Below, piece after piece: positions 19,475 through 50,912 of a stretch of 64,000 bases of DNA. The DNA is from a virus. The stretch lies in IMG/VR virus record IMGVR_UViG_3300025446_000004, positions 1-64,000 of that record. The stretch is one strand, 5' to 3'. The translations under genes and the position numbers were made by a program. Below the pieces are notes generated by a model, which worked only from the letters and a program-made list of their open reading frames with translations, did not search any database and had not been told where the DNA came from. Each line of letters opens with the position of its first letter. Position 1 is the first letter of the stretch.

Positions 19475-22438
19475 CTACCCCATCAAATCAGCAAACGGAT
19501 CAATGGATTCAGGCTCTTGCACAGCCTGTGCTTGTTCAACTTGAAAAGCCGTCCGTGGGTTATCGTCAGCCGCCATATTACTACTCAAATACGAATATTT
19601 TCCAGTACAGTAAACCAAATCCGAAAGCTCAGCCTCTCTCTGGTGGGCGGCATAATCTACGTTGGTTACTTCTAACCTACTACCCATATCCGCATACGCG
19701 CTAAACTGACTAACCAGTAATGACAATGCATCCACTATGTCATCATGAACGTCATCGCTAGTGCCGGTAAACTGCTCCATCTCGTTATAGATTTCTTCCA
19801 ACCCTTCGCAGGATTTAGAAAAATATAGTCGCTCATCCCCCAACAAACGAAGCACTGGTTTTGCTTTCAGTTGCTTTGATTTCGCCTTAGTACCTAACCC
19901 AAGCGACACGAACTCAACAGGAATGGAAATCTGTAGCTTCTGCATTTCCCGTCGCAACTCGGGACTAATCCACTTCACGCCCACAGAGTTTTCGATACAT
20001 ATCCTCTTAGGCTTCCACTTCAAACCAATAGCCGCGATCACAGACGGCAACTCATACTCATTAAACCGTCCCCTGACCATATTCAAGATGTAAAACCTAC
20101 CCCCATAAATCAGGGCAGTAATAATCACAGTGTAATCTGCCCATGACTTCAAAGAATACGCAGCATCTACTACCGATACAATCACTCCCTGTTGAGGAAG
20201 TTGTATCTGTGGAATTGTACGGCGCATCAAAAGTTCACGTGGAAACTTTATCTTATGCACCTGACGCGGATCATTGAGATACTTGATTGGAAAAACATCG
20301 GGGTCTTGTTCCTTCAAACCCATCAATGTATCATATGACAGAAGTTCAGGAAACCAAATAACCCAATCACTTGCTACTGTCTCTTCCTCAATCTTACCTA
20401 GTCGTTTGGCTTCATCTGTGAGCCAAAGCGCAGCACGAAGGTGTACCTTTGCCAAAACCGCACTATCAAATTGCCCGCTGTCAATAGAACCACGTATGTT
20501 GCCTTGCAAACCATGTCTTTCTGCACTTGAAATCTCTTTGGAAATCATCTGGCCGTAATAATCGTGCTCATCATACCACGTACCAATAACATCCAGAAAA
20601 CCATACGGATGCATTAGAGCTTTATTGATGCCTATTTGCCTGTTAACTTTTGCAAGTCGATCAAGGGTCAAACTGTTTTCGTTTGTAACCACGTCATCCA
20701 ACTTCATCACACAGTTATGTGTAACTGCACCAACTATGCAAATTGTTTCGTCCTCTTCTATCTGAACAGAAATAACAGAACCCACACCAACACGGTCTAC
20801 ACTTTCAACAATAGATGTGTCGCTTCCGTTTCTTGGGTTAGTTGGTTTTCCTTCATATAGTCCTACATTTCCCCATACACGCAAAGTATGATTCTCTTTA
20901 ACGGCCACGCTGCAAGACTGTTGCAAACCGAGTTTTTGCTTTATCATTAAAGCACCGGCAGCTATTTCATCTGATATGGTTGTCAGGCTACCACGGTCAT
21001 CTCCATCACCAGACCACATCCCACGAACAAGGGCCATCAATAATTCCCTTGGAGAATTTATTAACCATGCCGGTATATTTTTCCTGCATGGCCCAACATA
21101 CATTGACCGAAAAACATCAGTAAAAACTTTTGGTGCCTTTCGTATATAAAGAACAATCCCTCTATCACAAACCTGCTTTATTCTATAACTATCTGCTCCA
21201 TATGCAACAAAAAGTTTTCCTAAATTTTCAAAAACCTCAGTTTCATCGATATTGCCTGAAAATTGAACCTGATTATTACGAATAGAACCTTCTGCAATAA
21301 ACCAACCAAACATATTATAAACAGATTCTAACTGCGGTATAGGGGATGAGGGAGATTCATTTACAACAGGTCTCATAATTTTTGTTCCAATTACTAGATT
21401 TTCAGCATCTTCCCAACCCTGGTCTGTCAAAAACGGGTGGTCAACCGAACAAGTAACCGGGAACGCTCCAATCTTCTTAAACGTGATTGTTACTCTATCT
21501 GATAATCTTTCTTTTAATGCAACAACCCTCCTGTACCTTCCTTTATGAGTAAGAACTTTGTCTCCAATTTGAAAGTTCTTAACTTGCTTTACACCATCCT
21601 CGGTATAGACCCAAGTATCTGGAGAAAGACAATAGTGCGCACCAGACAAAGCTTGTTCAATAGATGCCGACCGTACTGACGGTTCCCTTATCTCACCAGC
21701 AGCAGCGGTTTGAAACTCTGTTTGAATACCTTCACCGGGAGGAATACAGTGTTCAGGAAACAAAACTTGAAAAATACTGGTCTCTTTATCTCCCGTAACG
21801 CGGTCCAAAACCTTACATGGCCTATAAATAGGCTTTTTTGTGGTTTCGTCTATGCTCCCGCTATCTTCCATCATAAAGTGCGCTCTAAGCTCCGAAATAA
21901 AATCAGTAGCGAGCTTGAACACTCCGGTCATAATGGCTATAGTTATCTCTGGATAGCAAACAATCCACTGTACACAATCAGCAATGTCAATAGAACTCTT
22001 AAATCCACCACGAGGAACCAAAAGCAAGCGACTTTTCAGGTCACCGTAACCATCTGCAAACGCACGAAACGTAGGAAGAGTGGGGTCTTTCTGCACAAAA
22101 AAACTATTGCATATATACTCATGTGCGCCTAACGTAACCTGACCGTATATAACCAACAACTTGCACATGAAATATAAATTAGTCTGCGCCAAAAAGCGCA
22201 GTCTCATCATTTCCCCGGTCGCATTAACCTGTTCCGCATGGTCACCAGATTCAGAAAGAAATTTATGCCAACTATCAAAAACTGCACACTGTTGTTCGTC
22301 TGATAACCTCTGGAAACTACGAACAGAAAGCTGCATGAATTCGCCGTCAGGTTCATTATCGTCATGAAGCCGATAATACTGATAGTGTTCATTCGCACGA
22401 CACTCTGCCGCTACCCGCCTAAGCTCCTCCAAGTTCAT
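19475..22438 (-). CDS. terL: Terminase large subunit (intein-containing)
   Basis: Walker A LVPRGGFKSS, Walker B MKLDD, coupling motif VIGTWY, nuclease VDAA...DY...HDDIVDAL. Confidence 0.9.
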   Translation of the reverse strand: MNLEELRRVAAECRANEHYQYYRLHDDNEPDGEFMQLSVRSFQRLSDEQQCAVFDSWHKFLSESGDHAEQVNATGEMMRLRFLAQTNLYFMCKLLVIYGQVTLGAHEYICNSFFVQKDPTLPTFRAFADGYGDLKSRLLLVPRGGFKSSIDIADCVQWIVCYPEITIAIMTGVFKLATDFISELRAHFMMEDSGSIDETTKKPIYRPCKVLDRVTGDKETSIFQVLFPEHCIPPGEGIQTEFQTAAAGEIREPSVRSASIEQALSGAHYCLSPDTWVYTEDGVKQVKNFQIGDKVLTHKGRYRRVVALKERLSDRVTITFKKIGAFPVTCSVDHPFLTDQGWEDAENLVIGTKIMRPVVNESPSSPIPQLESVYNMFGWFIAEGSIRNNQVQFSGNIDETEVFENLGKLFVAYGADSYRIKQVCDRGIVLYIRKAPKVFTDVFRSMYVGPCRKNIPAWLINSPRELLMALVRGMWSGDGDDRGSLTTISDEIAAGALMIKQKLGLQQSCSVAVKENHTLRVWGNVGLYEGKPTNPRNGSDTSIVESVDRVGVGSVISVQIEEDETICIVGAVTHNCVMKLDDVVTNENSLTLDRLAKVNRQIGINKALMHPYGFLDVIGTWYDEHDYYGQMISKEISSAERHGLQGNIRGSIDSGQFDSAVLAKVHLRAALWLTDEAKRLGKIEEETVASDWVIWFPELLSYDTLMGLKEQDPDVFPIKYLNDPRQVHKIKFPRELLMRRTIPQIQLPQQGVIVSVVDAAYSLKSWADYTVIITALIYGGRFYILNMVRGRFNEYELPSVIAAIGLKWKPKRICIENSVGVKWISPELRREMQKLQISIPVEFVSLGLGTKAKSKQLKAKPVLRLLGDERLYFSKSCEGLEEIYNEMEQFTGTSDDVHDDIVDALSLLVSQFSAYADMGSRLEVTNVDYAAHQREAELSDLVYCTGKYSYLSSNMAADDNPRTAFQVEQAQAVQEPESIDPFADLMG
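20714..21631 (-). mobile_element. Intein with LAGLIDADG endonuclease (306 aa)
   Basis: Starts CLSPDTWV, block B SVDHPFLT, GWFIAEGS and GMWSGDG motifs, ends VTHN followed by C(+1). Confidence 0.92.
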
Positions 22439-32315: not shown

Positions 32316-32417
32316 GAGGGTGTAGCTCAGATGGTGAGAGCACCCGACATGTTTCAGCCTTAAGGTAGACCAAAGGCACGTGCCGGGAGGCCGCAGGTTC
32401 GATTCCTGTCACCCCTT
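32316..32417 (+). tRNA. tRNA-like RNA with expanded anticodon arm (no assignable anticodon)
   Basis: TAGCTCAG..TGGT.AGAGC D arm, GCAGG-TTCGATT-CCTGT T arm, GGGTG/CACCC acceptor pairing; 35-nt insert in place of the 7-nt loop. Confidence 0.65.
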
Positions 32418-32542: not shown

Positions 32543-32617
32543 CGCGGGGTAGCTCAGTCCGGTAAGAGCGAAAGATTCATAATCTTTAGGCCACAGGTTC
32601 AAATCCTGTCCCCGCAA
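32543..32617 (+). tRNA. tRNA-Met(CAT), initiator-like acceptor stem
   Basis: CGCGGGG/CCCCGCA with C1xA72 mismatch, loop TTCATAA, T loop TTCAAAT; CCA not encoded. Confidence 0.9.
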
Positions 32618-32628
32618 CATTGGTTGCT

Positions 32629-36080: not shown

Positions 36081-36126
36081 TAAAAGATAAAAATATATTG
36101 GAACTAAAGGACAAGGAGGAACCACA

Positions 36127-36330: not shown

Positions 36331-36356
36331 TTCAAGAAGTGCCATTTGAAATAACT

Positions 36357-36395
36357 CCTGCACAATAACTCGCCCAAAGTTATCGTGCAGGTTTT
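36357..36395 (+). terminator. Rho-independent terminator
   Basis: CCTGCACAATAACT...AGTTATCGTGCAGG followed by TTTT. Confidence 0.65.
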
Positions 36396-36564
36396 GTGTA
36401 TTCACAAAATTTATATTAGAACACTTCTAATAACATTATATTGAAGTGACCCCCTTTTCCGCATATCTCCAACCGGCCCCCTGACACCCTTCCAGCCTTG
36501 ACACAAGCCCTTTATATCCCCATAGGCTTGACACTACCCCGTTAAGACCCCCTTCCTATACCAA

Positions 36565-36580
36565 TGTTCCACGTGGAACA
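36565..36580. promoter_or_regulatory. parS: parS centromere-like site
   Basis: Perfect palindrome TGTTCCACGTGGAACA matching the bacterial chromosomal ParB-binding consensus. Confidence 0.8.
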
Positions 36581-37069
36581 CAGTGTGAAACATTTGATTC
36601 CATTGGGAGCGTCTGTGTTTCATGCTGCCATGCCGGGATAGCTGCGCACGCTGTTAATTATTACAACGCGCTGGATTAGTGGGGTATCCGATTTTGGCCA
36701 CACCAGCAAAAGCTGACGAACGCATACCCCTGTGGGGTCTGGCGGCACGGTCGGCCCGGTACTTCTTAACCACCCTATAACCCCTGTAAAATCTTATACA
36801 TGCGCCATGTAAACGGTTACAATGTTTCTGGGTTGCAACCTTTTACCGTTGGAATTCTGCGGCATCCGGTTTGTAACTCGTTTGGTTTTAATGGGATGGT
36901 CGCAATGTAAACAAAATCACATAATGTTGACAAATGGTCACAGGTTATCAACTAATAAATTAGTTGATGGTTTGGAAACAAGATTGTGTGACGTGGCGCA
37001 TAGTAAACGACAGGATACGGCCCATTTAATCTTTACATCCGTTCCCCTATTGAACTCGGTCCGTTCCGG

Positions 37070-38380
37070 GGTTCGCATCCGGCCCGGTTCTATTGCGGCC
37101 CGTTGCCGGTGTTCCTATAGTTGCTTGTGTCGATGTTCCCCGGCCCGTTTGGAGTCAACATCTGGCGGCCCGGTCGCCGGTGTTCTCGGTTGTCATGCTG
37201 CTACGTTGACCGGTTTGATTAGTTTGACCAGCGTCCCATTGCCGGGGTTATATGGTCTCAAGGTTCTATGGGGGGGTCACTGTCAATTGCCCGGCTTGGA
37301 CCATTGCCGATAAAAATATAGTGGAACTCGCACAGGGCGATTTAAGCGGTTCGGATCATTGCCGGGGTAATTCCCCATACCTGTGGTTAATACGGGCGCA
37401 GAGTGGCCCGGTTCTATTGCGGCCCGGTCGCCGGTTGCATGGCGGCCCGGTTGCTATGCTGGCATTGACCGGCAGCCCCTTGGTTCGGGGTTACTAGGGT
37501 TCTATGGTTAAGGTATAAGGTCGAAGTCAATTGCTCGGCTCGGCCCGATCCGTTGCCGATAAAAATATATTGAAACTAACGCAACGTGATTTTACCGGCG
37601 GCCCGGTTCCACGGTTGACCAATTGACCGATTGACCGGCGGCCCATATCAGGCGGCCCGGTTGCCGGATCATTGCCGGATTACTGCGGCCCGTTACGCTC
37701 GCGGTTGTCGGTTTAATCTGGCGGCCCATTGCCGGGGTTGTTAGGTATAAGGGAACGTGAGCTAAACGGGCCGGGCCGGATCATTCCCGATAACTTTATA
37801 TCGTAACTCACTGCAAGGCGATTTAAACGACCTGTACCGTTGCCGGGGATCATTCCATACTGGCGGCCCATTGAACGCATGGCGGCCCGGTTCTGATCAC
37901 TGGCGGCCCGTTGTAATTGGCGGCCCGGTTCCTGGGTTGCGTTATCGGTTGCTGATCATTTGGAGCAACCGGCGGCCCGTGGTTCTAATATTTTTTTCGT
38001 GGAATTCAACCGCTAGCACGTACAATGCCAAACGGCCCAATGTACTGTGAAAATTCCGAACGAAAGTAATACCGCTAAAATATGGCTCGGCGGCCCGGTT
38101 CGCATTGTAATGTTATAAATAAATCGCTTTACTTGCGGTTTTGTAAACGATTACATTTCAGCCAATTAGTAAAGCGATTTACTAGCGGCTCTGTATGTCC
38201 TTGATTCTATTAACTAAATCGCTTTACAATCGCTTGCAAGCTAAATCAATTTACCTTGCCCGGTGTTGATCCGATTTTGAAAAATGAGGTGACCGGTCAA
38301 CTCACGGCCCGGCGGCCCGTCTAGCGCGAAATACAGTTTCCCATATCAGGCGAATATTAAGAGAATATTTGCGGCCCACA
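37070..38380 (+). repeat. Left non-coding repeat block (GGCGGCCC-rich; degenerate ~240-bp units; GTAAA-N4-TTTAC boxes)
   Basis: 13 GGCGGCCC copies by manual count, all on the + strand. Confidence 0.9.
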
Positions 38381-38487
38381 GTTGGCCTGCGACTCGTATT
38401 TTGCTATTACTTTAGTTTTCTTCAATTCTTTTATTGTGTTGTAATTTTGTTCGAGCTAGCCGCATAATCAAGGGGAAAGGGGAAAAA

Positions 38488-38685
38488 ATGGAAACATACT
38501 TCATTGTCATGGCCCTGTTAGCAACCGTGGTTCTAATGTTGGCCGGTCTTGTATGGCTCAATCATTGTCACCATAAAGCAACCATGATCTGTTTACTCAT
38601 GCTCGTGTGTTGCTTTTTTCCGCCATTCCTTATCGTGGCTATTTTGATCGTGATGTGCGGTCAAGGAAAGGGGGAACCCCAATGA
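38488..38685 (+). CDS. Small membrane protein
   Basis: Two hydrophobic segments; purine-rich RBS. Confidence 0.55.
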   Translation: METYFIVMALLATVVLMLAGLVWLNHCHHKATMICLLMLVCCFFPPFLIVAILIVMCGQGKGEPQ

Positions 38686-38972
38686 TGTACAAAGTGAACC
38701 TCAAGGGTTACAACGGCAACCGCAATAAATCAGTTCTGGTGTTAGCTCCCGATAAAAATGCAGCGATTAGCATCGCCTTACACGAGTCTGGTTTTTTCAG
38801 TGTCGAATCCGTTCAACCGGAACCGGTCGAATTTGGTTTTGACTATAAGCATCAAGCTTGGGTCCGAAACAACCGATACGTTGGATGCGGCCACACGAAC
38901 CGGCCCACGTGCGGTTGCTTTGGCTCACTTCATGCCGGGGAACCGGTTCGGGCCGATGCGGAGTTTAAGTAA
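38682..38972 (+). CDS. Hypothetical protein
   Basis: MMYKVNLK start overlapping the previous stop; CGH...CGC...H metal-binding pattern. Confidence 0.6.
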   Translation: MMYKVNLKGYNGNRNKSVLVLAPDKNAAISIALHESGFFSVESVQPEPVEFGFDYKHQAWVRNNRYVGCGHTNRPTCGCFGSLHAGEPVRADAEFK

Positions 38973-39283
38973 AAATATATGGAAACTGCATTGCACCTTG
39001 ACAGAATACCGGCAAACGTTTGGCGCGAGTACGTGCAAGCGATACAGCGCACCGGGTTAACTCATCCGCTCAATGTCGCACTTGACCGGTTGCAGTTTTT
39101 ATTTTCACTTTCCCCGGTTGACGTGGAAAAATATTTTCAAGAGAGGAGGAGCGCATGATCCAAATGGTAGAAAGCTTTTTCCTGCTTTACACCGCGGCAG
39201 TGAGCGTGGTGTTGATCCTTGGCGCAATAGCTGTCAAGAACTCGGACCGATAACGCAACACTAACCAGAAAGGAAAAACTCGA

Positions 39284-39529
39284 ATGTTTAATCTTTACAA
39301 ATTCGTGTTTGTTTCAAAATCGCATGACGGAAAAAGGGCCGAAATACGGCGAGTAAACAAGTACACCGGCGCAACGAAAACTTTCCACGGTGTGAAATGC
39401 GGAGACGGGTTCCAAATCATTACCGGTTCGCGTGGTTTTTTTGACAACGGAAAAACGGTAACACTTCCGGTTTACACCTTGCTTAAGGCGAGCGAAATTG
39501 AATCGTCCCCGGCAACCGAAACGTTGTAA
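39284..39529 (+). CDS. Hypothetical protein
   Basis: AAAGGA RBS, 81 aa. Confidence 0.55.
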   Translation: MFNLYKFVFVSKSHDGKRAEIRRVNKYTGATKTFHGVKCGDGFQIITGSRGFFDNGKTVTLPVYTLLKASEIESSPATETL

Positions 39530-39724
39530 TAACATTTTCAAGAAAGTGTATCAAAGCAATGCAAAGTTTAGTTATTGGACGTGCCAGCGATTGTGACTGT
39601 AACTTGTGCCGTGGGTATGGCTGGCACATTTTCGCACCTTGGACAGTCCGAATGTGGCATAAGGTTTCCCGATTTTTCATTGAGAGTTATCAACAACATT
39701 TCAACCAGAAACGAGGATGAAAAA

Positions 39725-39940
39725 ATGATTGTCACGGAAACAATATCCTATAGGGTCTCAGGTATAGGGAAAACGTGGGAGGGGTTTAACATCACTTTTT
39801 CTCGTGAGTTTGACTATTTTCCGAGTTTGGATAATGTTCTCAAAACAACCGGAGACTTTGAGACAATTGATCATATTAAGGTGCATTGCGTGCACACTGT
39901 AACGTGTGAAGAAACCACTAAGTGTGCATTGGCTTTGTAA
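39725..39940 (+). CDS. Hypothetical protein
   Basis: MIVTETISY start after GAGGA. Confidence 0.5.
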   Translation: MIVTETISYRVSGIGKTWEGFNITFSREFDYFPSLDNVLKTTGDFETIDHIKVHCVHTVTCEETTKCALAL

Positions 39941-39977
39941 ATATTATGAATTCAACCCGAAACGAGGATTTTGACCT

Positions 39978-41528
39978 ATGGATTTTGTAACGCAATACCG
40001 GGCGGCCCGGCGAGTATCAACACCGCTGCTAGTCGTCCGCACATTTGACAGTAATTCAACCATCCGAACGATACGCGCAACTATCGGGGAAAAAATTGAG
40101 GATGTTGCGCTTATTCGTTGGGATATTTGCCACGGTTGCGAACCATTAACCAAACGGGCCGGGATCGAATTAAACGAAATGCTAGCGGGGGAAGAACCCG
40201 ATATTACCCTGTCACTAGAAAACACTTTGAGGCTAGCAGAAAAACAGGCACACTCTGACCAGTCAACCATGGTCACATTGTTTATTTGTAACGCTCATTT
40301 GTTCTGGCGTGATAATCCGCAAGTGATTCAAGGAATTTGGAATTTGCGCGATCTTTACAAGTCAAACGCTAACATGCTGGTGTTACTTACTTCCCCCGGT
40401 CAAACGGTACCGGCAGAATTGTCGAACGATGTTCTTGTGTTAGATGAACCGCTCCCCACACGTTCCGAACTCGGAAAAATCATTACTGATACTTTCCACT
40501 TTGCAAAATGGACTGCCCCAACTGGTGACCCACTAGAGCGGGCAGTTGATGCATTAGTGGGAGTGCCGGCTTTCGCAGCAGAGCAAAGTACCGCGATGAG
40601 TCTTGAAAGCAAAACTCAAGATTTAAATCTAAGCTCACTGTGGCAACACAAGCGAACTATTATTGCTCAGACTCCGGGGTTATCGTTATTTGACGGCGAC
40701 GATACGCTTGACAACATCGGAGGATTGGACAGTATCAAGTCATTCATTAGTTGTTTAATGAATGGGAAGCTTCCCCCGGCAGTGATCCTGTTTTCAGATG
40801 AAATTGAAAAAGGGTATGCCGGTACCGGAACCGATTTGAGCGGCACTAAAACGGAATTGACCGGCGGCACACTCACATGGACTGAGGAAAAAGGAATTGA
40901 CGGTATCCTATTACTTGGAGTACCCGGTGTGGGAAAATCGGCAATTATTAAGGCCATGGGTGGAACGTACAATCGGCCCGTTATCGGGTTCGATGTTGGA
41001 GCAATGCAGGGTTCGCTCGTGGGTCAATCAGGCGCAAACTTCCGCACTGCTACAAAAACGGTTGACGCAATTTCGGACGGAAAAATCCTGTGGGTCGCAA
41101 CATGTAACAGTGTTAATGCACTGCCTCCGGAGTTACGCTCACGATTCAAATTAGGCACTTTCTTTTTTGATGTTCCAACTGAAACGGAACGGGCCGCGAT
41201 TTGGAACATATACCGGGCAAAGTATGAAATACCGACGAATGATCCTACTCCGGATTGTACGGGGTGGACAGGCCGCGAAATTCGAGAGTGTGCATATAAG
41301 GCATACAGGTTTGGTATCACACTCAAGGAGGCGGCCCGGTACGTTGTTCCGGTAACCATTTCGAGTAAAGAACAAATTCAAGGCTTGAGGCTAGCAAGCT
41401 CTGGGAAGTATCTTTCGGCTAGTTACCCCGGTCTGTTCAATTGCCGGGGAGAGTTACCAGCAGCGAACATTGCAACCGTACCGGTTCTCCGTGCGGCCCG
41501 GTCACTCCAATTTGATGAGGAAAGGTAA
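39978..41528 (+). CDS. Ycf46-like AAA+ ATPase with rearranged motif order
   Basis: Degenerate N-terminal AAA domain; IGGLDSIK; VILFSDEIEK precedes GVPGVGKS; then VATCN..LPPEL.RF..FFFDVP. Confidence 0.85.
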   Translation: MDFVTQYRAARRVSTPLLVVRTFDSNSTIRTIRATIGEKIEDVALIRWDICHGCEPLTKRAGIELNEMLAGEEPDITLSLENTLRLAEKQAHSDQSTMVTLFICNAHLFWRDNPQVIQGIWNLRDLYKSNANMLVLLTSPGQTVPAELSNDVLVLDEPLPTRSELGKIITDTFHFAKWTAPTGDPLERAVDALVGVPAFAAEQSTAMSLESKTQDLNLSSLWQHKRTIIAQTPGLSLFDGDDTLDNIGGLDSIKSFISCLMNGKLPPAVILFSDEIEKGYAGTGTDLSGTKTELTGGTLTWTEEKGIDGILLLGVPGVGKSAIIKAMGGTYNRPVIGFDVGAMQGSLVGQSGANFRTATKTVDAISDGKILWVATCNSVNALPPELRSRFKLGTFFFDVPTETERAAIWNIYRAKYEIPTNDPTPDCTGWTGREIRECAYKAYRFGITLKEAARYVVPVTISSKEQIQGLRLASSGKYLSASYPGLFNCRGELPAANIATVPVLRAARSLQFDEER

Positions 41529-41532
41529 ACCG

Positions 41533-41916
41533 ATGAGTGCATATTCTGAATTCCCAATGTCCGAGTTTAAAGACTGTAACCTCTTGATCGAGGCAATGGA
41601 AAAAATGGGATACAGTCAAATCAGCCTCGACAAAACGAACTATGAATTGAGGCCAATGCAACCCGATTTAGTGTTTCGTAAAAATGGCGCATACGCTAGC
41701 ACGTGGAACGATGTAGGCTTCAAGCGTACCCCGAACGGCACTTATAGTGCTATGTTCTCGGATTACGCAACCGGCAATACTCAAACATGGGTGCAAAAAC
41801 TCAAAGGCGAGTACATCGAATGCGGTGTGATTCTCCAAGCCAAGAAAATGGGATTGCGGCCTGTGGGTCGCACTGAGAAAAATGGTAAGGTAACGCTCGT
41901 TTATCAGCGTGCATAA
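41533..41916 (+). CDS. DUF1257/Ycf35-like protein
   Basis: MSAYS...FKD..LLIEAMEKMGY...DVGFKR..NGTY; position next to a Ycf46-like ATPase. Confidence 0.75.
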   Translation: MSAYSEFPMSEFKDCNLLIEAMEKMGYSQISLDKTNYELRPMQPDLVFRKNGAYASTWNDVGFKRTPNGTYSAMFSDYATGNTQTWVQKLKGEYIECGVILQAKKMGLRPVGRTEKNGKVTLVYQRA

Positions 41917-41951
41917 CGCAAGCGCAACCGAAAGGAAAAGGTAAAAATATC

Positions 41952-42149
41952 ATGGCGAAAACGAAACTTGTAACCATTACGATTGACAAAGAAGCCGGCG
42001 GAGGATTCACATGCGATACAACCGGTTTCGAGGGCAAAGGGTGTGCCGATATTCACAGGATGTTTGAGTCTATTGGCGGCCCCGGCAAAACGGATCATAA
42101 GCCAGAGTGGAACCAAATACAACGGTTGAACGTTACGGCGGGGAGGTAA
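41952..42149 (+). CDS. DUF2997-like protein
   Basis: VTITIDK..G...DTTGFEGKGC...E..G.....KPEW, 65 aa. Confidence 0.75.
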   Translation: MAKTKLVTITIDKEAGGGFTCDTTGFEGKGCADIHRMFESIGGPGKTDHKPEWNQIQRLNVTAGR

Positions 42150-42152
42150 TCT

Positions 42153-42791
42153 ATGTTAGTTCATGCACGTATCGATAGCTCACAAGTCAATGGGCCGGGG
42201 AACCGGGCAGTGCTATGGTTTCAAGGTTGTTCCCTTAACTGCCTCGGATGTTGGAATGAGGGCACTCACCCATTTGATTTTGCTTATCACGTAGAATGGG
42301 GAACCATTCAAACATGGTTGATGAATTTACCGGCAGATGTAACAGGGTTGACCCTATCAGGGGGAGAGCCATTGCAGCACTCGTTTGACGTGCTAGCAAT
42401 AGCCGATTTTTTGAGCCTAGTACGGCCCGGTTTTTCCATTGGCTTATTCACGGGGTACACTCTGCCAGAGTTACGGGCCGGTCGATTCCAAACTATCGAC
42501 CAAACCGGAACCCGTTTGATACTCGGGGAACCGGAATTATGGGCCGCGATTGAAAACAGAATCGATTTTGCAGTAATGGGCCGGTTTAATCCGGGATTAG
42601 TAACCATTAAAAAACCGTTATGCGGTTCCGATAACCAAAGGGTTGTTCTATTCTCGAACCGCCATAAGCTTGCGGATTTTGACGGGCAAGCTTGCGAGAT
42701 TACAATTGGGGAACATGAGGGCCAGATGTGCGCAACTATGACGGGGTTCCCCGGTTCTGAATTCATTACCAGCATCAAAACTGCCCTATAA
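42153..42791 (+). CDS. Radical SAM protein, NrdG/activase-like
   Basis: VNGPGNRAVLWFQGCSLNCLGCWN (CX3CX2C), SGGEP, TGY, GSDNQR. Confidence 0.85.
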   Translation: MLVHARIDSSQVNGPGNRAVLWFQGCSLNCLGCWNEGTHPFDFAYHVEWGTIQTWLMNLPADVTGLTLSGGEPLQHSFDVLAIADFLSLVRPGFSIGLFTGYTLPELRAGRFQTIDQTGTRLILGEPELWAAIENRIDFAVMGRFNPGLVTIKKPLCGSDNQRVVLFSNRHKLADFDGQACEITIGEHEGQMCATMTGFPGSEFITSIKTAL

Positions 42792-42818
42792 CGGGGTAAC
42801 GAAAAGGAAGGTTAGAAC

Positions 42819-43748
42819 ATGGCTGAAAGCAACATTCAGACAATAACATTCAACGATGTAAGCGGGTTATCATCTCAAGTGATGTTTTTACAATTGCGGG
42901 CCGGTTTACTCGGGAACTCTCGAAAAATGGGAGGCGATATTTTCAACACTCCGGGAACCGATGTTGCATGGTTATCCGCAAACAAAAAACTCCTTGAGTC
43001 ACCGCAATTGGACGCGATACGCAAAGCAGACATGCGCATACGTCAGTGGTTATATAACTCAAAGGGACCAGCGTTACCTTGCAGCTTTGATGCGTTTACA
43101 ATTCCTAATGGTTCCGTTGTTTCAGTACGGAACAAGCTTGAGGAATTTAAAACGGAACGGGCCGGGTTGGTTGATGAATTCATGGCGGTGTACGTGGAAC
43201 AATCAAGGGAAGCAAGGGAAAAACTCGGCCCGCAATGGAATCCACACGAGTACTTGACCCCCGAACGTGTTCGAGCGAAATTTTACTTTGAGTATTCCTT
43301 TTATGGTTTCGGAGTCTCCGAAACACTTAAAGAAATTTCGCAAGAACTCTACGATGAACAAAAAAACAAAATCGAATCGGATTTTCGCAATGCAGCGGAC
43401 GAGATCACCGCAGTGATGCGGGAAACTGCTTTCGGGTTACTGCAAAACTTGCAAGAACAATTGACCCCGGACGATACCACGGGCAAAGCTAAAAAACTTC
43501 ATCCGGCGGCCCTTGCGAACGTTAAAAACTTTCTTGAAAGTTTCAGCATCAAGAATGTTACAAATGACAATGAACTCTCAAACATTCTCGCGCAAGTGAA
43601 AACACTGGTGACCGGGGTCGATACAAAAACCATTAAGGCCAGCGAGTCATTTAAAACAAACATGCGCGATAAACTCGCAGAGATTACCGGGAAACTTTCG
43701 ACCATGGTCGAGGAAAAATCGGGCCGCAAGTTTCTATTCGATGAGTGA
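42819..43748 (+). CDS. DUF3150-like helical protein
   Basis: 309 aa; ANKKLL...F...Y.....EAREKLG..W....Y...E.VR.KF.F pattern recalled from this MGE family. Confidence 0.55.
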   Translation: MAESNIQTITFNDVSGLSSQVMFLQLRAGLLGNSRKMGGDIFNTPGTDVAWLSANKKLLESPQLDAIRKADMRIRQWLYNSKGPALPCSFDAFTIPNGSVVSVRNKLEEFKTERAGLVDEFMAVYVEQSREAREKLGPQWNPHEYLTPERVRAKFYFEYSFYGFGVSETLKEISQELYDEQKNKIESDFRNAADEITAVMRETAFGLLQNLQEQLTPDDTTGKAKKLHPAALANVKNFLESFSIKNVTNDNELSNILAQVKTLVTGVDTKTIKASESFKTNMRDKLAEITGKLSTMVEEKSGRKFLFDE

Positions 43749-43814
43749 CAGAACCGGGCCGGGCAACCGGCCCACGGTTCCTTAACACGTTTTTTCAAGA
43801 AAGGAAAAAACCAA

Positions 43815-44480
43815 ATGATTGGAATTACGAAAACTGAACTACAAACCCTGTTTGATGCGATCAAAATTCAAGACAAATTTGACCGCAAAGAGTTTGTGCA
43901 TCTTCTTGTATTGTGCCGTTTGGCGATGCGAACCGGAACAGAAAAGCAATTGTTCGCAGCAGTCGAAGACGTAAACTGGGAACTCGGAATCGAGCAATCG
44001 GAACCGGCGCCCCCGGAACATGATCCACTCGAAAACATGATCGGGAATACGTTACGTGACTATCGGGCCGCCGGTTTACCTAATCCGGTTGAGCCAAGAA
44101 TCCACGAGGTAACCCCGGCAGTACCGGACCCAGCTCCGGAACCTGTGCCAGCTTCGGAACCCGATCTCAATCCCGCAATCACGGAAGCTTTGAACAGTAT
44201 GCGGGGAGAGTCGATCACCCTAGCAGATGGTATCGCCGTTTCGTTTCTTGGAACCGGCCCGATTCCTCTTGGGGTTGCATTGGACGTGGAACCGCGCATT
44301 GAACAATCGGCAAACTATCCTCGCATTATGCGCCGTTTACAAATCGCGCAAGAATTACTCTCAGGTTACTGTCACCAGTACCGCGAAACCGGAACTTTTA
44401 CTCCGGAATATGTCGGGCAAACGTTCCGGGAAAAATGTATTGCAATTCTGCGTTATGTAGTCAACTTGCTAAAAAACTAG
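43815..44480 (+). CDS. Hypothetical protein
   Basis: 221 aa; AAAGGA RBS; Pro/Glu linker. Confidence 0.65.
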   Translation: MIGITKTELQTLFDAIKIQDKFDRKEFVHLLVLCRLAMRTGTEKQLFAAVEDVNWELGIEQSEPAPPEHDPLENMIGNTLRDYRAAGLPNPVEPRIHEVTPAVPDPAPEPVPASEPDLNPAITEALNSMRGESITLADGIAVSFLGTGPIPLGVALDVEPRIEQSANYPRIMRRLQIAQELLSGYCHQYRETGTFTPEYVGQTFREKCIAILRYVVNLLKN

Positions 44481-44489
44481 CCTCGCATT

Positions 44490-45290
44490 TGACCTATAAC
44501 GGGCCGATGTGAATACTCCGGGCCAGTACCATGGCAGAAATGCCGGATACTGGCCCGGTTCTTTTTTGACGGCTCCGGCCCGGCCCGGCGGCCCGTTCCC
44601 ATATAAAAATATATTGAACTTCGACGGCCCGGTAAACGGATCATATGGTCCGGAACCATAGAACCGGCCCTGTAAACTACGGCCCGGCGGCCCACGGTTG
44701 ACTTGTATGGCTCATATACAGTTTTCGTGACCCTATACCCTCAAAAAAATATTTATAAGGTAAACCGATTTACTTTCAAGTTTGAAAAACATTTTACCAC
44801 GGTCAAAGTAAATCGCTTTACCTATAATTTTATATAAGGGTACGGTACCATCCCCCGGCGGCCCGGCGGCCCATGGGGGAACACTGGCGGCCCATGGCGG
44901 CCCGATCTCGTGAGTGACCGGCAACCCCGGCGGCCCGGTACCGGCGGCCCACGTGGCAACCGGCGGCCCGGCGGCCCGGTTCTACAGGCGGCCCCGGTAC
45001 CCTGGTTCTAATATATCTATTGAAATAGTAACATTTTGGTTACACGTTACTAGAGTAATACACCCTACCAATTACATATTACTAAAGTAACTGTATACAA
45101 TTGGCAACAGTAACGTTACCTTAGTCATCATAGTAACGTTACCAAAGTAACAACCGCTCCGGGCGGCCCTTTGGTGGGGTTCGATCTCTTCTAGCAGGAA
45201 AAATCCGAGCAAAATCACTTAGGTACTTGATGATTCCGGTCGTCTCTTCTAGTAATAAAACTTTCGCGGAATTCTCTTAGGTACTTAGGT
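44490..45290 (+). repeat. Right non-coding repeat block (GGCGGCCC-rich; GTAAA-N4-TTTAC and GTTAC-N4-GTAAC boxes; ~58-bp-period direct repeat)
   Basis: 12 GGCGGCCC copies by manual count, all on the + strand. Confidence 0.9.
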
Positions 45291-45322
45291 AATTTGATTT
45301 TACAAGGTGTTGCTTTTTTAGC

Positions 45323-45351
45323 TTGACGTGTTTTTAGGGGCATGATACTTT
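45323..45351 (+). promoter_or_regulatory. Sigma70-type promoter
   Basis: TTGACG-17-TACTTT with TG extension. Confidence 0.55.
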
Positions 45352-45398
45352 AGGCTTGACCCGCAGAGTGGAAACATGAAACGGGATTATTAAATGGG

Positions 45399-45608
45399 AT
45401 GGTCACCATGCCAGAACCAATCAAAAATGAACTCTCGCAAGTCATGGCCGCTATGCGGGCGCGGATTGATTCAACTGACAAGATAGCGCGTGTTACCCGG
45501 CGACCAAAGCCAAGATGCAAGCATCCTCATATAAATTTAGCGCATCGTTACCGCACAGCAGCACAACTGGCGCGTAAGGCAACGAAACCCAACGGGGCGC
45601 CAGTATGA
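45399..45608 (+). CDS. Hypothetical protein
   Basis: First ORF after the promoter. Confidence 0.5.
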   Translation: MVTMPEPIKNELSQVMAAMRARIDSTDKIARVTRRPKPRCKHPHINLAHRYRTAAQLARKATKPNGAPV

Positions 45609-47168: not shown

Positions 47169-47300
47169 TGTGAAATCAGTCACGACAGGCGGCAAGTCGC
47201 TCAAACGCAACGTGAAGAATCCAAAGGCACACGAAGTGTGGATACAGCGCAAGCGCGAACGCAACGCGCAGAAGGTGAATCCACAGAAGAAGGGGTAACC

Positions 47301-47744
47301 ATGACACCGGTTAATTCAAAGCGATGTAAGATCAAGCGCATGGTTCATAATACCGTGCCTTTAATCAATCACCCGATACGTGAGGGATTTTGTGTGGTTG
47401 ATGGGAAAAAAATATATCCGAACATCAAGGCCGGATGGAGCGCAATAAACTATATCAGGGCGAACGGCAATGATACGCGGCCCCGTAATGATATGCGTCC
47501 ATACCTCAGTGAATCGTGCGGACATATTCACATCGGGCACTACAAGTCTCAGCAGCAAGAGGTAACACCGAGCACCGGGGTTGAGCACGGTGCTCCGAGC
47601 ACGGTGCTCAGTGGACCGAACTACACCGAGCACGGGCCGAGCACCAAGGCACCGGTTAATGCGCGGGGGTTCCAGCATCGGGGGCGCACGATCCGACGCA
47701 AGACGGAACCACCCGCGCACGTGAGTCAAGAAAGGATAAACTAA
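47301..47744 (+). CDS. Hypothetical protein containing a GAGCAC repeat array
   Basis: GKKIY...MRPY...CGHIHIGH motif; start uncertain. Confidence 0.5.
   Translation: MTPVNSKRCKIKRMVHNTVPLINHPIREGFCVVDGKKIYPNIKAGWSAINYIRANGNDTRPRNDMRPYLSESCGHIHIGHYKSQQQEVTPSTGVEHGAPSTVLSGPNYTEHGPSTKAPVNARGFQHRGRTIRRKTEPPAHVSQERIN
47568..47646. repeat. GAGCAC/GTGCTC array
   Basis: 5 GAGCAC and 2 GTGCTC, including tandem GAGCACGGTGCTC palindromes. Confidence 0.85.
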
Positions 47745-50539: not shown

Positions 50540-50912
50540 CATGGTCCCGGTACCTGTATCTACCGGGTGGTGGAGGGCCGTTGGGTGCCCCTCGTAGCAG
50601 TCAGTCGTAAGGCTGCTACGTTTTAAGCATGTAGAAAGGTGCGGAATACAATTTCGGACACGGGTTCGACTCCCGTCGCTTCCACCATAAAAATATATGG
50701 GAGCGTCACGGTTTCGACGGAATTGAAACATGCAAGCTAGTTCATGCCGGGATTGGTGCTCACCGTGACGAGAACTAAACACAAACTGCCACACTGCGTG
50801 ACGGTTGGAATAGGCTTAAGGCGGCGTTCTTCGGAACGTTTGCGTTTAGTCCTGTTCTTGCGACTGCTTAACCGTAGTCAAGGGTTTCCCGTGTCCTTAA
50901 CCAATCACGGGA
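50540..50912 (+). ncRNA. ssrA: Circularly permuted (two-piece) tmRNA
   Basis: 3' part GGACACGGGTTCGACTCCCGTCGCTTCCACCA ends at 50687; 11-nt spacer; 5' part GGGAGCGTCACGGTTTCGAC starts at 50699; stem GGGAGCG/CGCTTCC with G3.U70; tag ORF 50788-50871; outer limits approximate. Confidence 0.88.

Follow-up and report, generated by a model that had tools for sequence, protein, structure and literature searches.

The first 64,000 nucleotides of an 89,756-bp phage contig (IMG/VR record IMGVR_UViG_3300025446_000004), here called the window, carry a short, strictly oriented DNA word, the octamer GGCGGCCC, gathered into two arrays at two non-coding control regions, on either side of a gene cassette that encodes an AAA ATPase. 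No other cis-acting signal in this genome is as clear as this word, and it marks both control regions. We tentatively read the arrays as head-to-tail docking sites for a sequence-specific DNA-binding protein at twin control regions; this is a possible reading, and the one preferred here to the alternatives weighed below. Phage control regions with arrays of short direct repeats are of a known kind; what is unusual is the strict one-strand orientation of the octamer, its density, its confinement to the bracketed cassette, and the phage family in which it occurs.

GGCGGCCC is found 29 times on the + strand, always within about 8 kb (positions 37164–45169, hereafter the island), so that the word is restricted to 9% of the phage genome: 13 copies lie in the left non-coding block, 4 in genes and 12 in the right block. 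No further + copy is present across the full 89,756-bp contig. On the - strand there are 3 copies (23423, 44065 and 55122), only one of which, 44065, falls inside the island, where the polarity is 29 to 1. The initial annotation, made from the window sequence, had given exactly these + strand counts, the same single reverse copy in the island and no + copy elsewhere, a statement that holds for the whole contig. Its coordinates included the span of the arrays, but set the start at 37070, while the left non-coding region begins further left, at 36331.

The excess of the word outlasts several controls of sequence composition. In the window, 32 matches were counted against a mean of 1.57 in shuffled sequences (maximum 5; none of 100 shuffles reaches 32), an enrichment of about 18-fold. 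Local controls used Markov models of order 1 to 3, trained for each region, with 300 simulations each: the left non-coding region has 13 words against means of 0.08–1.67 (maximum 6), the right one 12 against 0.07–3.04 (maximum 9), and the coding part of the island 4 against 0.10–0.12 (maximum 2), which corresponds to a local enrichment of about 10- to 100-fold. A model of order 4 trained on a block learns the word itself (means 6.6–7.2), and is therefore not a fair control. For the genic copies, synonymous codons were shuffled 1000 times in 11 open reading frames (ORFs) of the island (5,730 nt), keeping the codon usage of the island: 4 copies are observed against 0.27, and no shuffle reaches 4. 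The word is also unusually exact, with 29 exact + copies in the island against 11 with one mismatch on the same strand. Its extended consensus, C-Y-GGCGGCCC-R-K-T, is about 13 nt long. Successive words are irregularly spaced, by 8 to 277 nt, and show no helical phasing (vector strength at most 0.31 at periods 10–11). A literature search for the whole word, as GGCGGCCC or GGGCCGCC, returned nothing on it, the matches being unrelated.

The two control regions share a layout. Neither the left one (36331–38430, + strand, 2.1 kb) nor the right one (44481–45398, + strand, 0.9 kb) contains a credible ORF. The left region opens with a terminator-like hairpin and C-rich GACCCCC-type motifs, followed by a palindrome at 36565–36580 and a GGCCACACCAGC box; after this opening part, with its family-conserved elements, come three diverged units of about 240 bp and the word array. 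Each unit is headed by a promoter-like box, TAAAAATATAnTGnAACT, with the words after it. The left array (37164–38318, + strand) is made of 13 exact copies, with spacings of 277, 156, 40, 14, 69, 142, 19, 21, 17, 52, 118 and 222 nt. The right array (44587–45169, + strand) has 12 exact copies, with spacings of 99, 171, 8, 21, 10, 33, 14, 19, 8, 17 and 175 nt; nine of them are packed inside 138 bp (44857–44994). The 11-mer GGTTCTAATAT has only two copies in the genome, one after each dense array: at 37981–37991 (+), 3 bp beyond the word that closes the dense left cluster, and at 45004–45014 (+), 10 bp beyond the one that closes its right counterpart. It may represent the -10 region of a promoter. 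Both blocks hold promoter-like boxes: one of them, TAAAAATATAGTGGAACT, is at 37311–37328 (+), with related copies at 36088, 37560, 38970 and 44604 (0–3 mismatches to the 18-mer). Operator-like palindromes of the GTAAAnCGnTTTAC type were also found in both blocks; the inverted pair TAAATCGCTTTACT / AGTAAAGCGATTTA spans 38120–38181, and a related pair 44758–44823 in the right block. The first gene of the downstream operon begins within 0.4 kb, at 38434 on the left and at 45399 on the right.

Conservation of the word was evaluated in relatives of the phage. Among isolates, Tunturiibacter phage Tunturi_3 is the closest, its head protein being 85% identical and its gene order largely common to the two phages; in addition, 240 IMG/VR contigs carry a related head protein. 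The word was searched in 14 relatives with contigs of at least 58 kb, taken from the best 80 of these 240, while the whole-genome k-mer comparison took in 6 relatives. In two relatives, G001 and G002, whose AAA proteins are 53–57% identical to that of the phage, the word is enriched 5- to 10-fold, in the same orientation and at the syntenic place: G001 has 6 + words in its block against 0.8–1.0 expected, and G002 has 10 + words at 10.4–19.8 kb, around the AAA cassette, against 1.0–1.9 expected, values reached in neither case by any of 200 simulations. Copies are present also in G014, where they form no cluster. No copy is found on either strand in 10 of the 14 large relatives, nor in Tunturi_3; this absence is unremarkable, because the reversed control word is equally rare there. 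The initial annotation had stated that its proposal would fall if relatives showed no conserved word in this region: two distant relatives keep it in the same place.

A repeat-rich non-coding block of 1–1.7 kb is present at the same synteny point in Tunturi_3, G001 and G002, with other short words in it. The boxes GGCCACACCAGC and AGGGTTGGTTAGGGACGTTA are shared among these blocks; the phage described here lacks AGGGTTGGTTAGGGACGTTA, and its GGCCACACCAGC box (36696–36707, + strand) is shared with the equivalent blocks of Tunturi_3 and G001. Local polar words near the cassette are CAGCG[GA]A in Tunturi_3, CAGCGC[AG] in G014, CGCAGGTC in G001 and CGGCCCAG in G002. All of them exceed the baseline given by the unrelated phage Tunturi_2, where -log10P peaks at 11.4 (7-mers) and 8.5 (8-mers); the local word of G003, TACCGGGG (12.6 and 10.7), does not rise above this baseline. 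The polar words of relatives are to be taken as a lead only, because genes lying on one strand let ribosome-binding-site, codon or hairpin effects produce them.

A rule of arrays for the whole family is not claimed. Among 50 AAA-centred loci, tandem arrays near the cassette mostly fall within open frames and have a period divisible by 3, hence coding repeats; only two are clearly non-coding (61-nt and 11-nt periods). A search of IMG/VR for arrays of the same word was set aside as uninformative on relatives: of at least 120 loci, nearly all have multiple-of-3 spacing and high GC content, and represent coding repeats of Gly/Pro type. As a separate observation, a 15-nt tandem array stands at the start of the G004 contig and a 12-nt one at its end, just past the AAA gene; its assembly broke within repeats, and the remainder of the cassette is missing.

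These comparisons also bear on whether the word has a function of its own. It might be a by-product of old unit duplications, of hairpin arms, or of the foreign oligonucleotide signature of an acquired module, which we regard as quite improbable. In keeping with such an origin, the left block contains the three diverged units; the island genes have a codon and k-mer signature of their own (CCG for Pro 0.45 vs 0.34, CGG for Arg 0.29 vs 0.16; control genes for the codon analyses were 26 hand-picked + strand ORFs); many copies in G002 of CGGCCC/GGGCCG, the hexamer core of the word, are arms of intergenic hairpins; and most cassette-near arrays of the wider family are coding repeats, as described above. 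The three left units, however, align only weakly with one another (column identity averages 52% in an alignment of 5 sequences) and yet the words in them are exact, which argues for purifying selection on the word itself. The longest stretch common to the two blocks is 16 nt, so that a recent duplication does not account for the excess; there are no inverse copies inside the blocks to form hairpins; the excess persists after synonymous shuffling at the codon usage of the island; and the same word is kept in relatives whose proteins are 53–57% identical. The claim of the initial annotation that the word is kept by selection, rather than by composition or duplication, was borne out by shuffles, Markov models of order 1 to 3, codon shuffles and the comparison of the blocks.

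Exactness, head-to-tail arrays, a duplicated layout, deep persistence and lineage-specific words at a fixed position are best accommodated by docking arrays. GGCGGCCC would be the core of a recognition site of about 13 nt for a protein, probably phage-encoded, which would bind many head-to-tail copies at the two regions bracketing the AAA-ATPase cassette. This protein would most likely serve to load RNA polymerase at twin early promoters, or to exclude it from them, since the arrays lie directly upstream of GGTTCTAATAT, which is followed by operator-like palindromes and by an operon start within 0.4 kb; a second option would be an iteron-like control of replication, through pairing of the two arrays. 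Differing words in syntenic blocks are what would be expected, if the DNA-binding specificity co-evolves with its sites. Arrays of activator or repressor sites at early promoters are a similar class: here, too, arrays are placed just upstream of a -10-like element, with operator palindromes downstream, at two operon starts. The arrays described here differ in that 12–13 copies per region, and such exactness, are unusual, and no regulator was identified. The word offers a bait, for example concatenated CYGGCGGCCCRKT, for finding its reader protein; since the AAA-ATPase cassette lies between the arrays, the word may also provide a handle on the role of the cassette.

A number of observations weigh against docking arrays. 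When 28 proteins of the island and its neighbourhood were scanned against Pfam or PHROGs, none matched a DNA-binding family, and no ParB_N or NusG domain was found in the phage genome. A sigma-70-type scan gave 11 promoters against 14.2 expected, hence no excess. The spacing of the words is unphased, and the word, short and unusually exact, is nearer to Chi/KOPS or restriction-type sites than to typical operators or to 17–22-bp iterons. Promoter control, moreover, explains neither the four genic copies, which fall in two reading frames, nor the excess of CGGCCC and CCGG on both strands in the genes. Sigma-54 geometry was also considered (TGGC-N7-TTGC; GG-N10-GC promoters): TTGC is at the right distance after only 2 of the 29 words.

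One ORF (47238–47744) was considered as a candidate for the binding protein and dropped, because G014 carries it but has no word cluster. It is present in G001, G002 and G014, and not in Tunturi_3, G003 or G004; it matches no Pfam family, its only PHROGs match is marginal (phrog_14788, of unknown function, E 0.0092), Atlas scores do not exceed 0.84, and the fold model is weak.

The iteron-like variant of docking has known counterparts. In P1 oriR/incA and F ori2, iteron arrays flank a replicon gene, and P4 ori/crr has paired clusters of octamers; in each, one phage or plasmid protein binds the arrays. As in those systems, two direct-repeat clusters lie kilobases apart and bracket genes, with 13 and 12 head-to-tail copies in one orientation, and the P4 repeat is an octamer as well. 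Typical iterons, on the other hand, are 17–22 bp long and helically phased, whereas here the site is of about 8–13 nt and its spacing irregular. No initiator-type gene was recognised: no Rep or initiator family was found among the 28 scanned proteins, and the ATPase between the arrays is a classic PF00004 AAA ATPase. DnaA-like boxes (at most 1 mismatch) do not cluster, with 1 in the two blocks against 35 genome-wide. AT content is 59–61% at 36831–37030 and 65% at 38131–38230.

The injection-stop (iss) region of phage T5, as far as described in the available text of 10.1101/866236, is a long untranslated stretch within the left terminal repeat, with repeats, inverted repeats and palindromes, located ahead of the early genes and conserved in position. 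The blocks of the phage studied here are likewise untranslated, rich in repeats and positionally conserved; the T5 region, in the same text, carries 8 DnaA boxes as a fixed set, whereas no DnaA cluster is present in these blocks.

Shortness, exactness, genic copies and the two-strand excess of CCGG and CGGCCC keep alive another reading, in which the word is a directional signal for a moving machine: it would either attenuate, as Chi does, a host nuclease of the RecBCD/AddAB type, or orient a translocase, perhaps of the phage, in the way of KOPS, on the DNA exposed first. We consider it unlikely. Like Chi and the KOPS/SRS octamers, the word is exact and asymmetric, with few degenerate copies, strongly polar (29 to 1), irregularly spaced, and present in both coding and non-coding DNA, its genic copies being in different frames. 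The 3–4 tandem promoter-like boxes of the left block would suit a leading end, by comparison with T7. Differently from Chi and KOPS/SRS, however, the word is limited to 8 kb, or 9% of the genome, and nine copies within 138 bp are denser than needed.

Bacterial genomes of the candidate host phylum give no support to a directional word. None of 201 sampled Acidobacteriota genomes over-represents GGCGGCCC relative to the reversed control: the top ratio is about 1.7, and many are below 1. In the one Acidobacteriota genome that was fully checked, + and - copies are mixed along a 274-kb contig. An apparent polarity in two genomes (19 of 19, and 19 of 20, on the + strand among the matches listed) was accordingly rejected, as strands are mixed on full view. 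The Chi/KOPS-like role suggested by the initial annotation, to be sought in candidate hosts, thus found no backing in the sampled genomes of this phylum. In the same direction, the local word of Tunturi_3 is scattered in Tunturi_2, whose host strain is the same, with 17 + and 19 - copies showing neither clustering nor polarity. Arrays serving as operators of a host factor were also looked for and discarded: a triple-word pattern occurs in 39 of 401 Acidobacteriota genomes, but the reversed control pattern occurs in many as well, and the matches listed are mostly Gly/Pro-coding or regular tandem repeats.

A wider form of the directional reading would extend it to the family: one segment of about 8–10 kb, containing the AAA ATPase, would be marked in this soil family by a lineage-specific directional word, read by a phage machine, possibly the ATPase complex of the cassette itself, as a counterpart of Chi/KOPS that drives or sets apart early, perhaps first-entering, DNA. 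Little credence can be given to this proposal; if it were true that a phage machine reads such a word, it would amount to a new kind of phage genome organisation.

The dense clusters may be compared also with packaging signals. Small-terminase rings bind repeat arrays, and arrays of short repeats are found beside the terminal repeat at the T7 concatemer junction and in the T5 injection-stop region. The control regions could be a packaging or terminus region, either with a small-terminase ring on direct repeats (pac/cos-type), or with repeat arrays next to a terminal repeat, an explanation somewhat less likely than a directional signal. Nine head-to-tail copies spaced by 8–33 bp would fit a multimeric ring, and the family-conserved GACCCCC-type motifs and GGCCACACCAGC lie just upstream. 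Moreover, of 3 contigs of relatives that close into a circle, 2 have their break between the genes for the phosphoesterase and the AAA protein, which is the site of the block. The overlaps at the contig breaks (97, 127 and 30 bp), however, look like assembler k-mer overlaps, and repeats break assemblies anyway. In one source-like sequencing run, a single contig of 35,851 bp spans the entire stretch without a joint. Two arrays 6.3 kb apart match no known pac layout, and no small terminase was identified.

Polarity alone does not tell which strand is read. The word might act in RNA or in transcription, as a motif of early leaders and mRNAs for an RNA-binding protein or nuclease, or as an ops-like pause or antitermination element of the non-template strand, but this was judged improbable. 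The words lie downstream of promoter-like boxes, their strand being that of all genes there, and they share GGCGG with what we take to be the ops core, a weak resemblance. As noted, the genome has no NusG/RfaH-like domain; furthermore, no Rfam family matches the blocks, and the folding z-scores are -1.40 for the left block and -2.67 for the right one, the latter value being largely due to the operator-like inverted repeat.

Within the genes, the hexamer core of the word behaves differently from the octamer. The initial annotation had counted about two dozen CGGCCC/GGGCCG in the coding part; 24 are indeed present in 38431–44480, but on both strands (11 on + and 13 on -). In the codon shuffles of the island ORFs, CGGCCC (10 vs 1.33), GGGCCG (12 vs 3.26) and CCGG (69 vs 43.8) are all in excess, none of the 1000 shuffles reaching the observed values. 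The enrichment therefore stands, while the hexamer, being enriched on both strands, is outside the polar signal. The abundance of CCGG, and its frequent contact with the word, were confirmed: its density is 12/kb in the island genes and 18–25/kb in the blocks, against 4.1–4.7/kb elsewhere.

A further reading concerns restriction or modification. The word could be a methylation or modification target, or a decoy, placed in one orientation, for an enzyme whose action requires inversely oriented asymmetric sites, following the Type III logic known for EcoP15I sites in T7; we hold this to be highly improbable. Such a role would agree with a site that is asymmetric and almost always in one orientation, with the overlap of CCGG by 21 of the 29 words, and with the presence of GGCC in all of them. 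Some Acidobacteriota genomes, too, strongly avoid the word relative to the reversed control: five have few copies (G029, 2/114; G047, 10/200; G067, 46/599; G077, 5/179; G091, 8/172), which suggests, in these word-poor lineages, a strong avoidance of something within the word. Against it, evasion by orientation predicts no enrichment: the T7/EcoP15I bias is genome-wide and without enrichment, while this word is enriched at least 18-fold and confined to 8 kb, with one inverse copy inside the island (44065). Furthermore, neither the phage nor six relatives show any avoidance of GGCC and CCGG (observed/expected 0.74–1.22). The methylation mark proposed in the initial annotation was not supported by the search for a phage methyltransferase: the 89.7-kb contig gives no match, at E <= 1, to the C5 and N4/N6 domain families PF00145 and PF01555.

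Between the two blocks, small ORFs accompany the cassette, composed of the AAA ATPase, a weakly DUF1257-like ORF, a radical SAM protein and a weakly DUF3150-like ORF. The AAA ATPase gene (39978–41528, + strand) is the largest of the cassette (Pfam PF00004, E 1.4e-8; phrog_8638, E 3.5e-38). The radical SAM/4Fe-4S protein (42153–42791, + strand; PF13353, E 1.2e-22) was found, of the six relatives compared, in G002 only. A literature search for DUF3150, DUF1257 or DUF2997 in phages found nothing. Two of the genic word copies are in the AAA ATPase gene, at 40001–40008 (+), where the word covers codons for R-A-A-R and is found at the homologous codons in G002, and at 41330–41337 (+). The third, at 42075–42082 (+), is in a small ORF (41952–42149), and the fourth, at 43505–43512 (+), in the ORF at 42819–43748, the one with the weak DUF3150-like match. 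The single reverse copy of the island (44065–44072, - strand) lies in the ORF at 43815–44480.

Some further elements of the control regions may be mentioned. Upstream of the left array, the perfect 16-bp palindrome TGTTCCACGTGGAACA (36565–36580) bears what we take to be a likeness to a chromosomal parS site; it is followed by GTGTGAAACA / TGTGTTTCA half-sites. In sequencing run X13, from one peat population, contigs have loose ends at 36541 and 36707, so the segment is in another context there. One contig of the same run begins at 44960; its 12 loose letters agree with the stretch just in front of the word at 44857 (44843–44971), which suggests either a shorter variant of the array or a collapse by the assembler. 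Between the right array and the final word copy, at 45025–45155, is a run of AGTAAC / GTTAC words, with the palindrome AGTAACGTTACC present twice, probably a separate set of binding sites.

The contig has the hallmark genes of a phage (large terminase, portal protein, major head protein and DNA polymerase), a GC content of 45.8% and an estimated completeness, by CheckV, of 95%. To our knowledge, Acidobacteriota phages are almost unstudied, and we know of nothing on their origins, promoters, genome ends or regulators. Tunturi_3 is a podovirus of Acidobacteriota, and the first phage isolates of this phylum date from 2025, according to the available text of PMC11924767. DNA of the phage has turned up in the metagenomes of 23 studies, from peat and wetlands; no RNA dataset is included in the 24 sequencing runs matching it. 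The four runs compared are near-identical to the phage, and therefore provide no test of the conservation of the word. A megablast search of the phage collection returned no near-identical DNA, and the AAA protein as query found no close relative in IMG/VR; the DNA polymerase found one contig, ending just beyond the polymerase gene.

Relatives of the head protein (60% and 49% identity) are also encoded within contigs of 158.8 and 217.6 kb, from metagenome-assembled genomes of Bryobacteraceae and Terriglobia. These contigs exceed in size any phage of the Tunturi_3-related family; they are possibly relatives kept as prophages or episomes, and give a hint of the host phylum. The tetramer TTAA is nearly missing from Tunturi_3, G001 and G014 (no copy in the 97.6 kb of the first, and one each in the 98.6 and 58.3 kb of the other two; observed/expected 0.00–0.02), while the phage described here, G002, G003 and G004 have 124–469 copies; this scarcity looks as if part of the family avoided restriction. 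GATC is under-used in G003 (observed/expected 0.32).

Other features of the window lie away from the arrays. The large terminase ORF (19475–22438, - strand) encodes 987 amino acids, of which only residues 580–922 match terminases, while residues 248–372 resemble a piece of ribonucleotide reductase; the homologue in Tunturi_3 has 686 amino acids, so an intein or other insert is possible. A tRNA match of 102 nt by Rfam (44.4 bits), at 32316–32417, is not called by ARAGORN, and adjoins a normal tRNA-Met (32543–32618). A permuted tmRNA gene is located at 50627–50819 (Rfam RF04321, 79.2 bits, full model), where ARAGORN reports a tRNA-Leu-like piece at 50593–50687.

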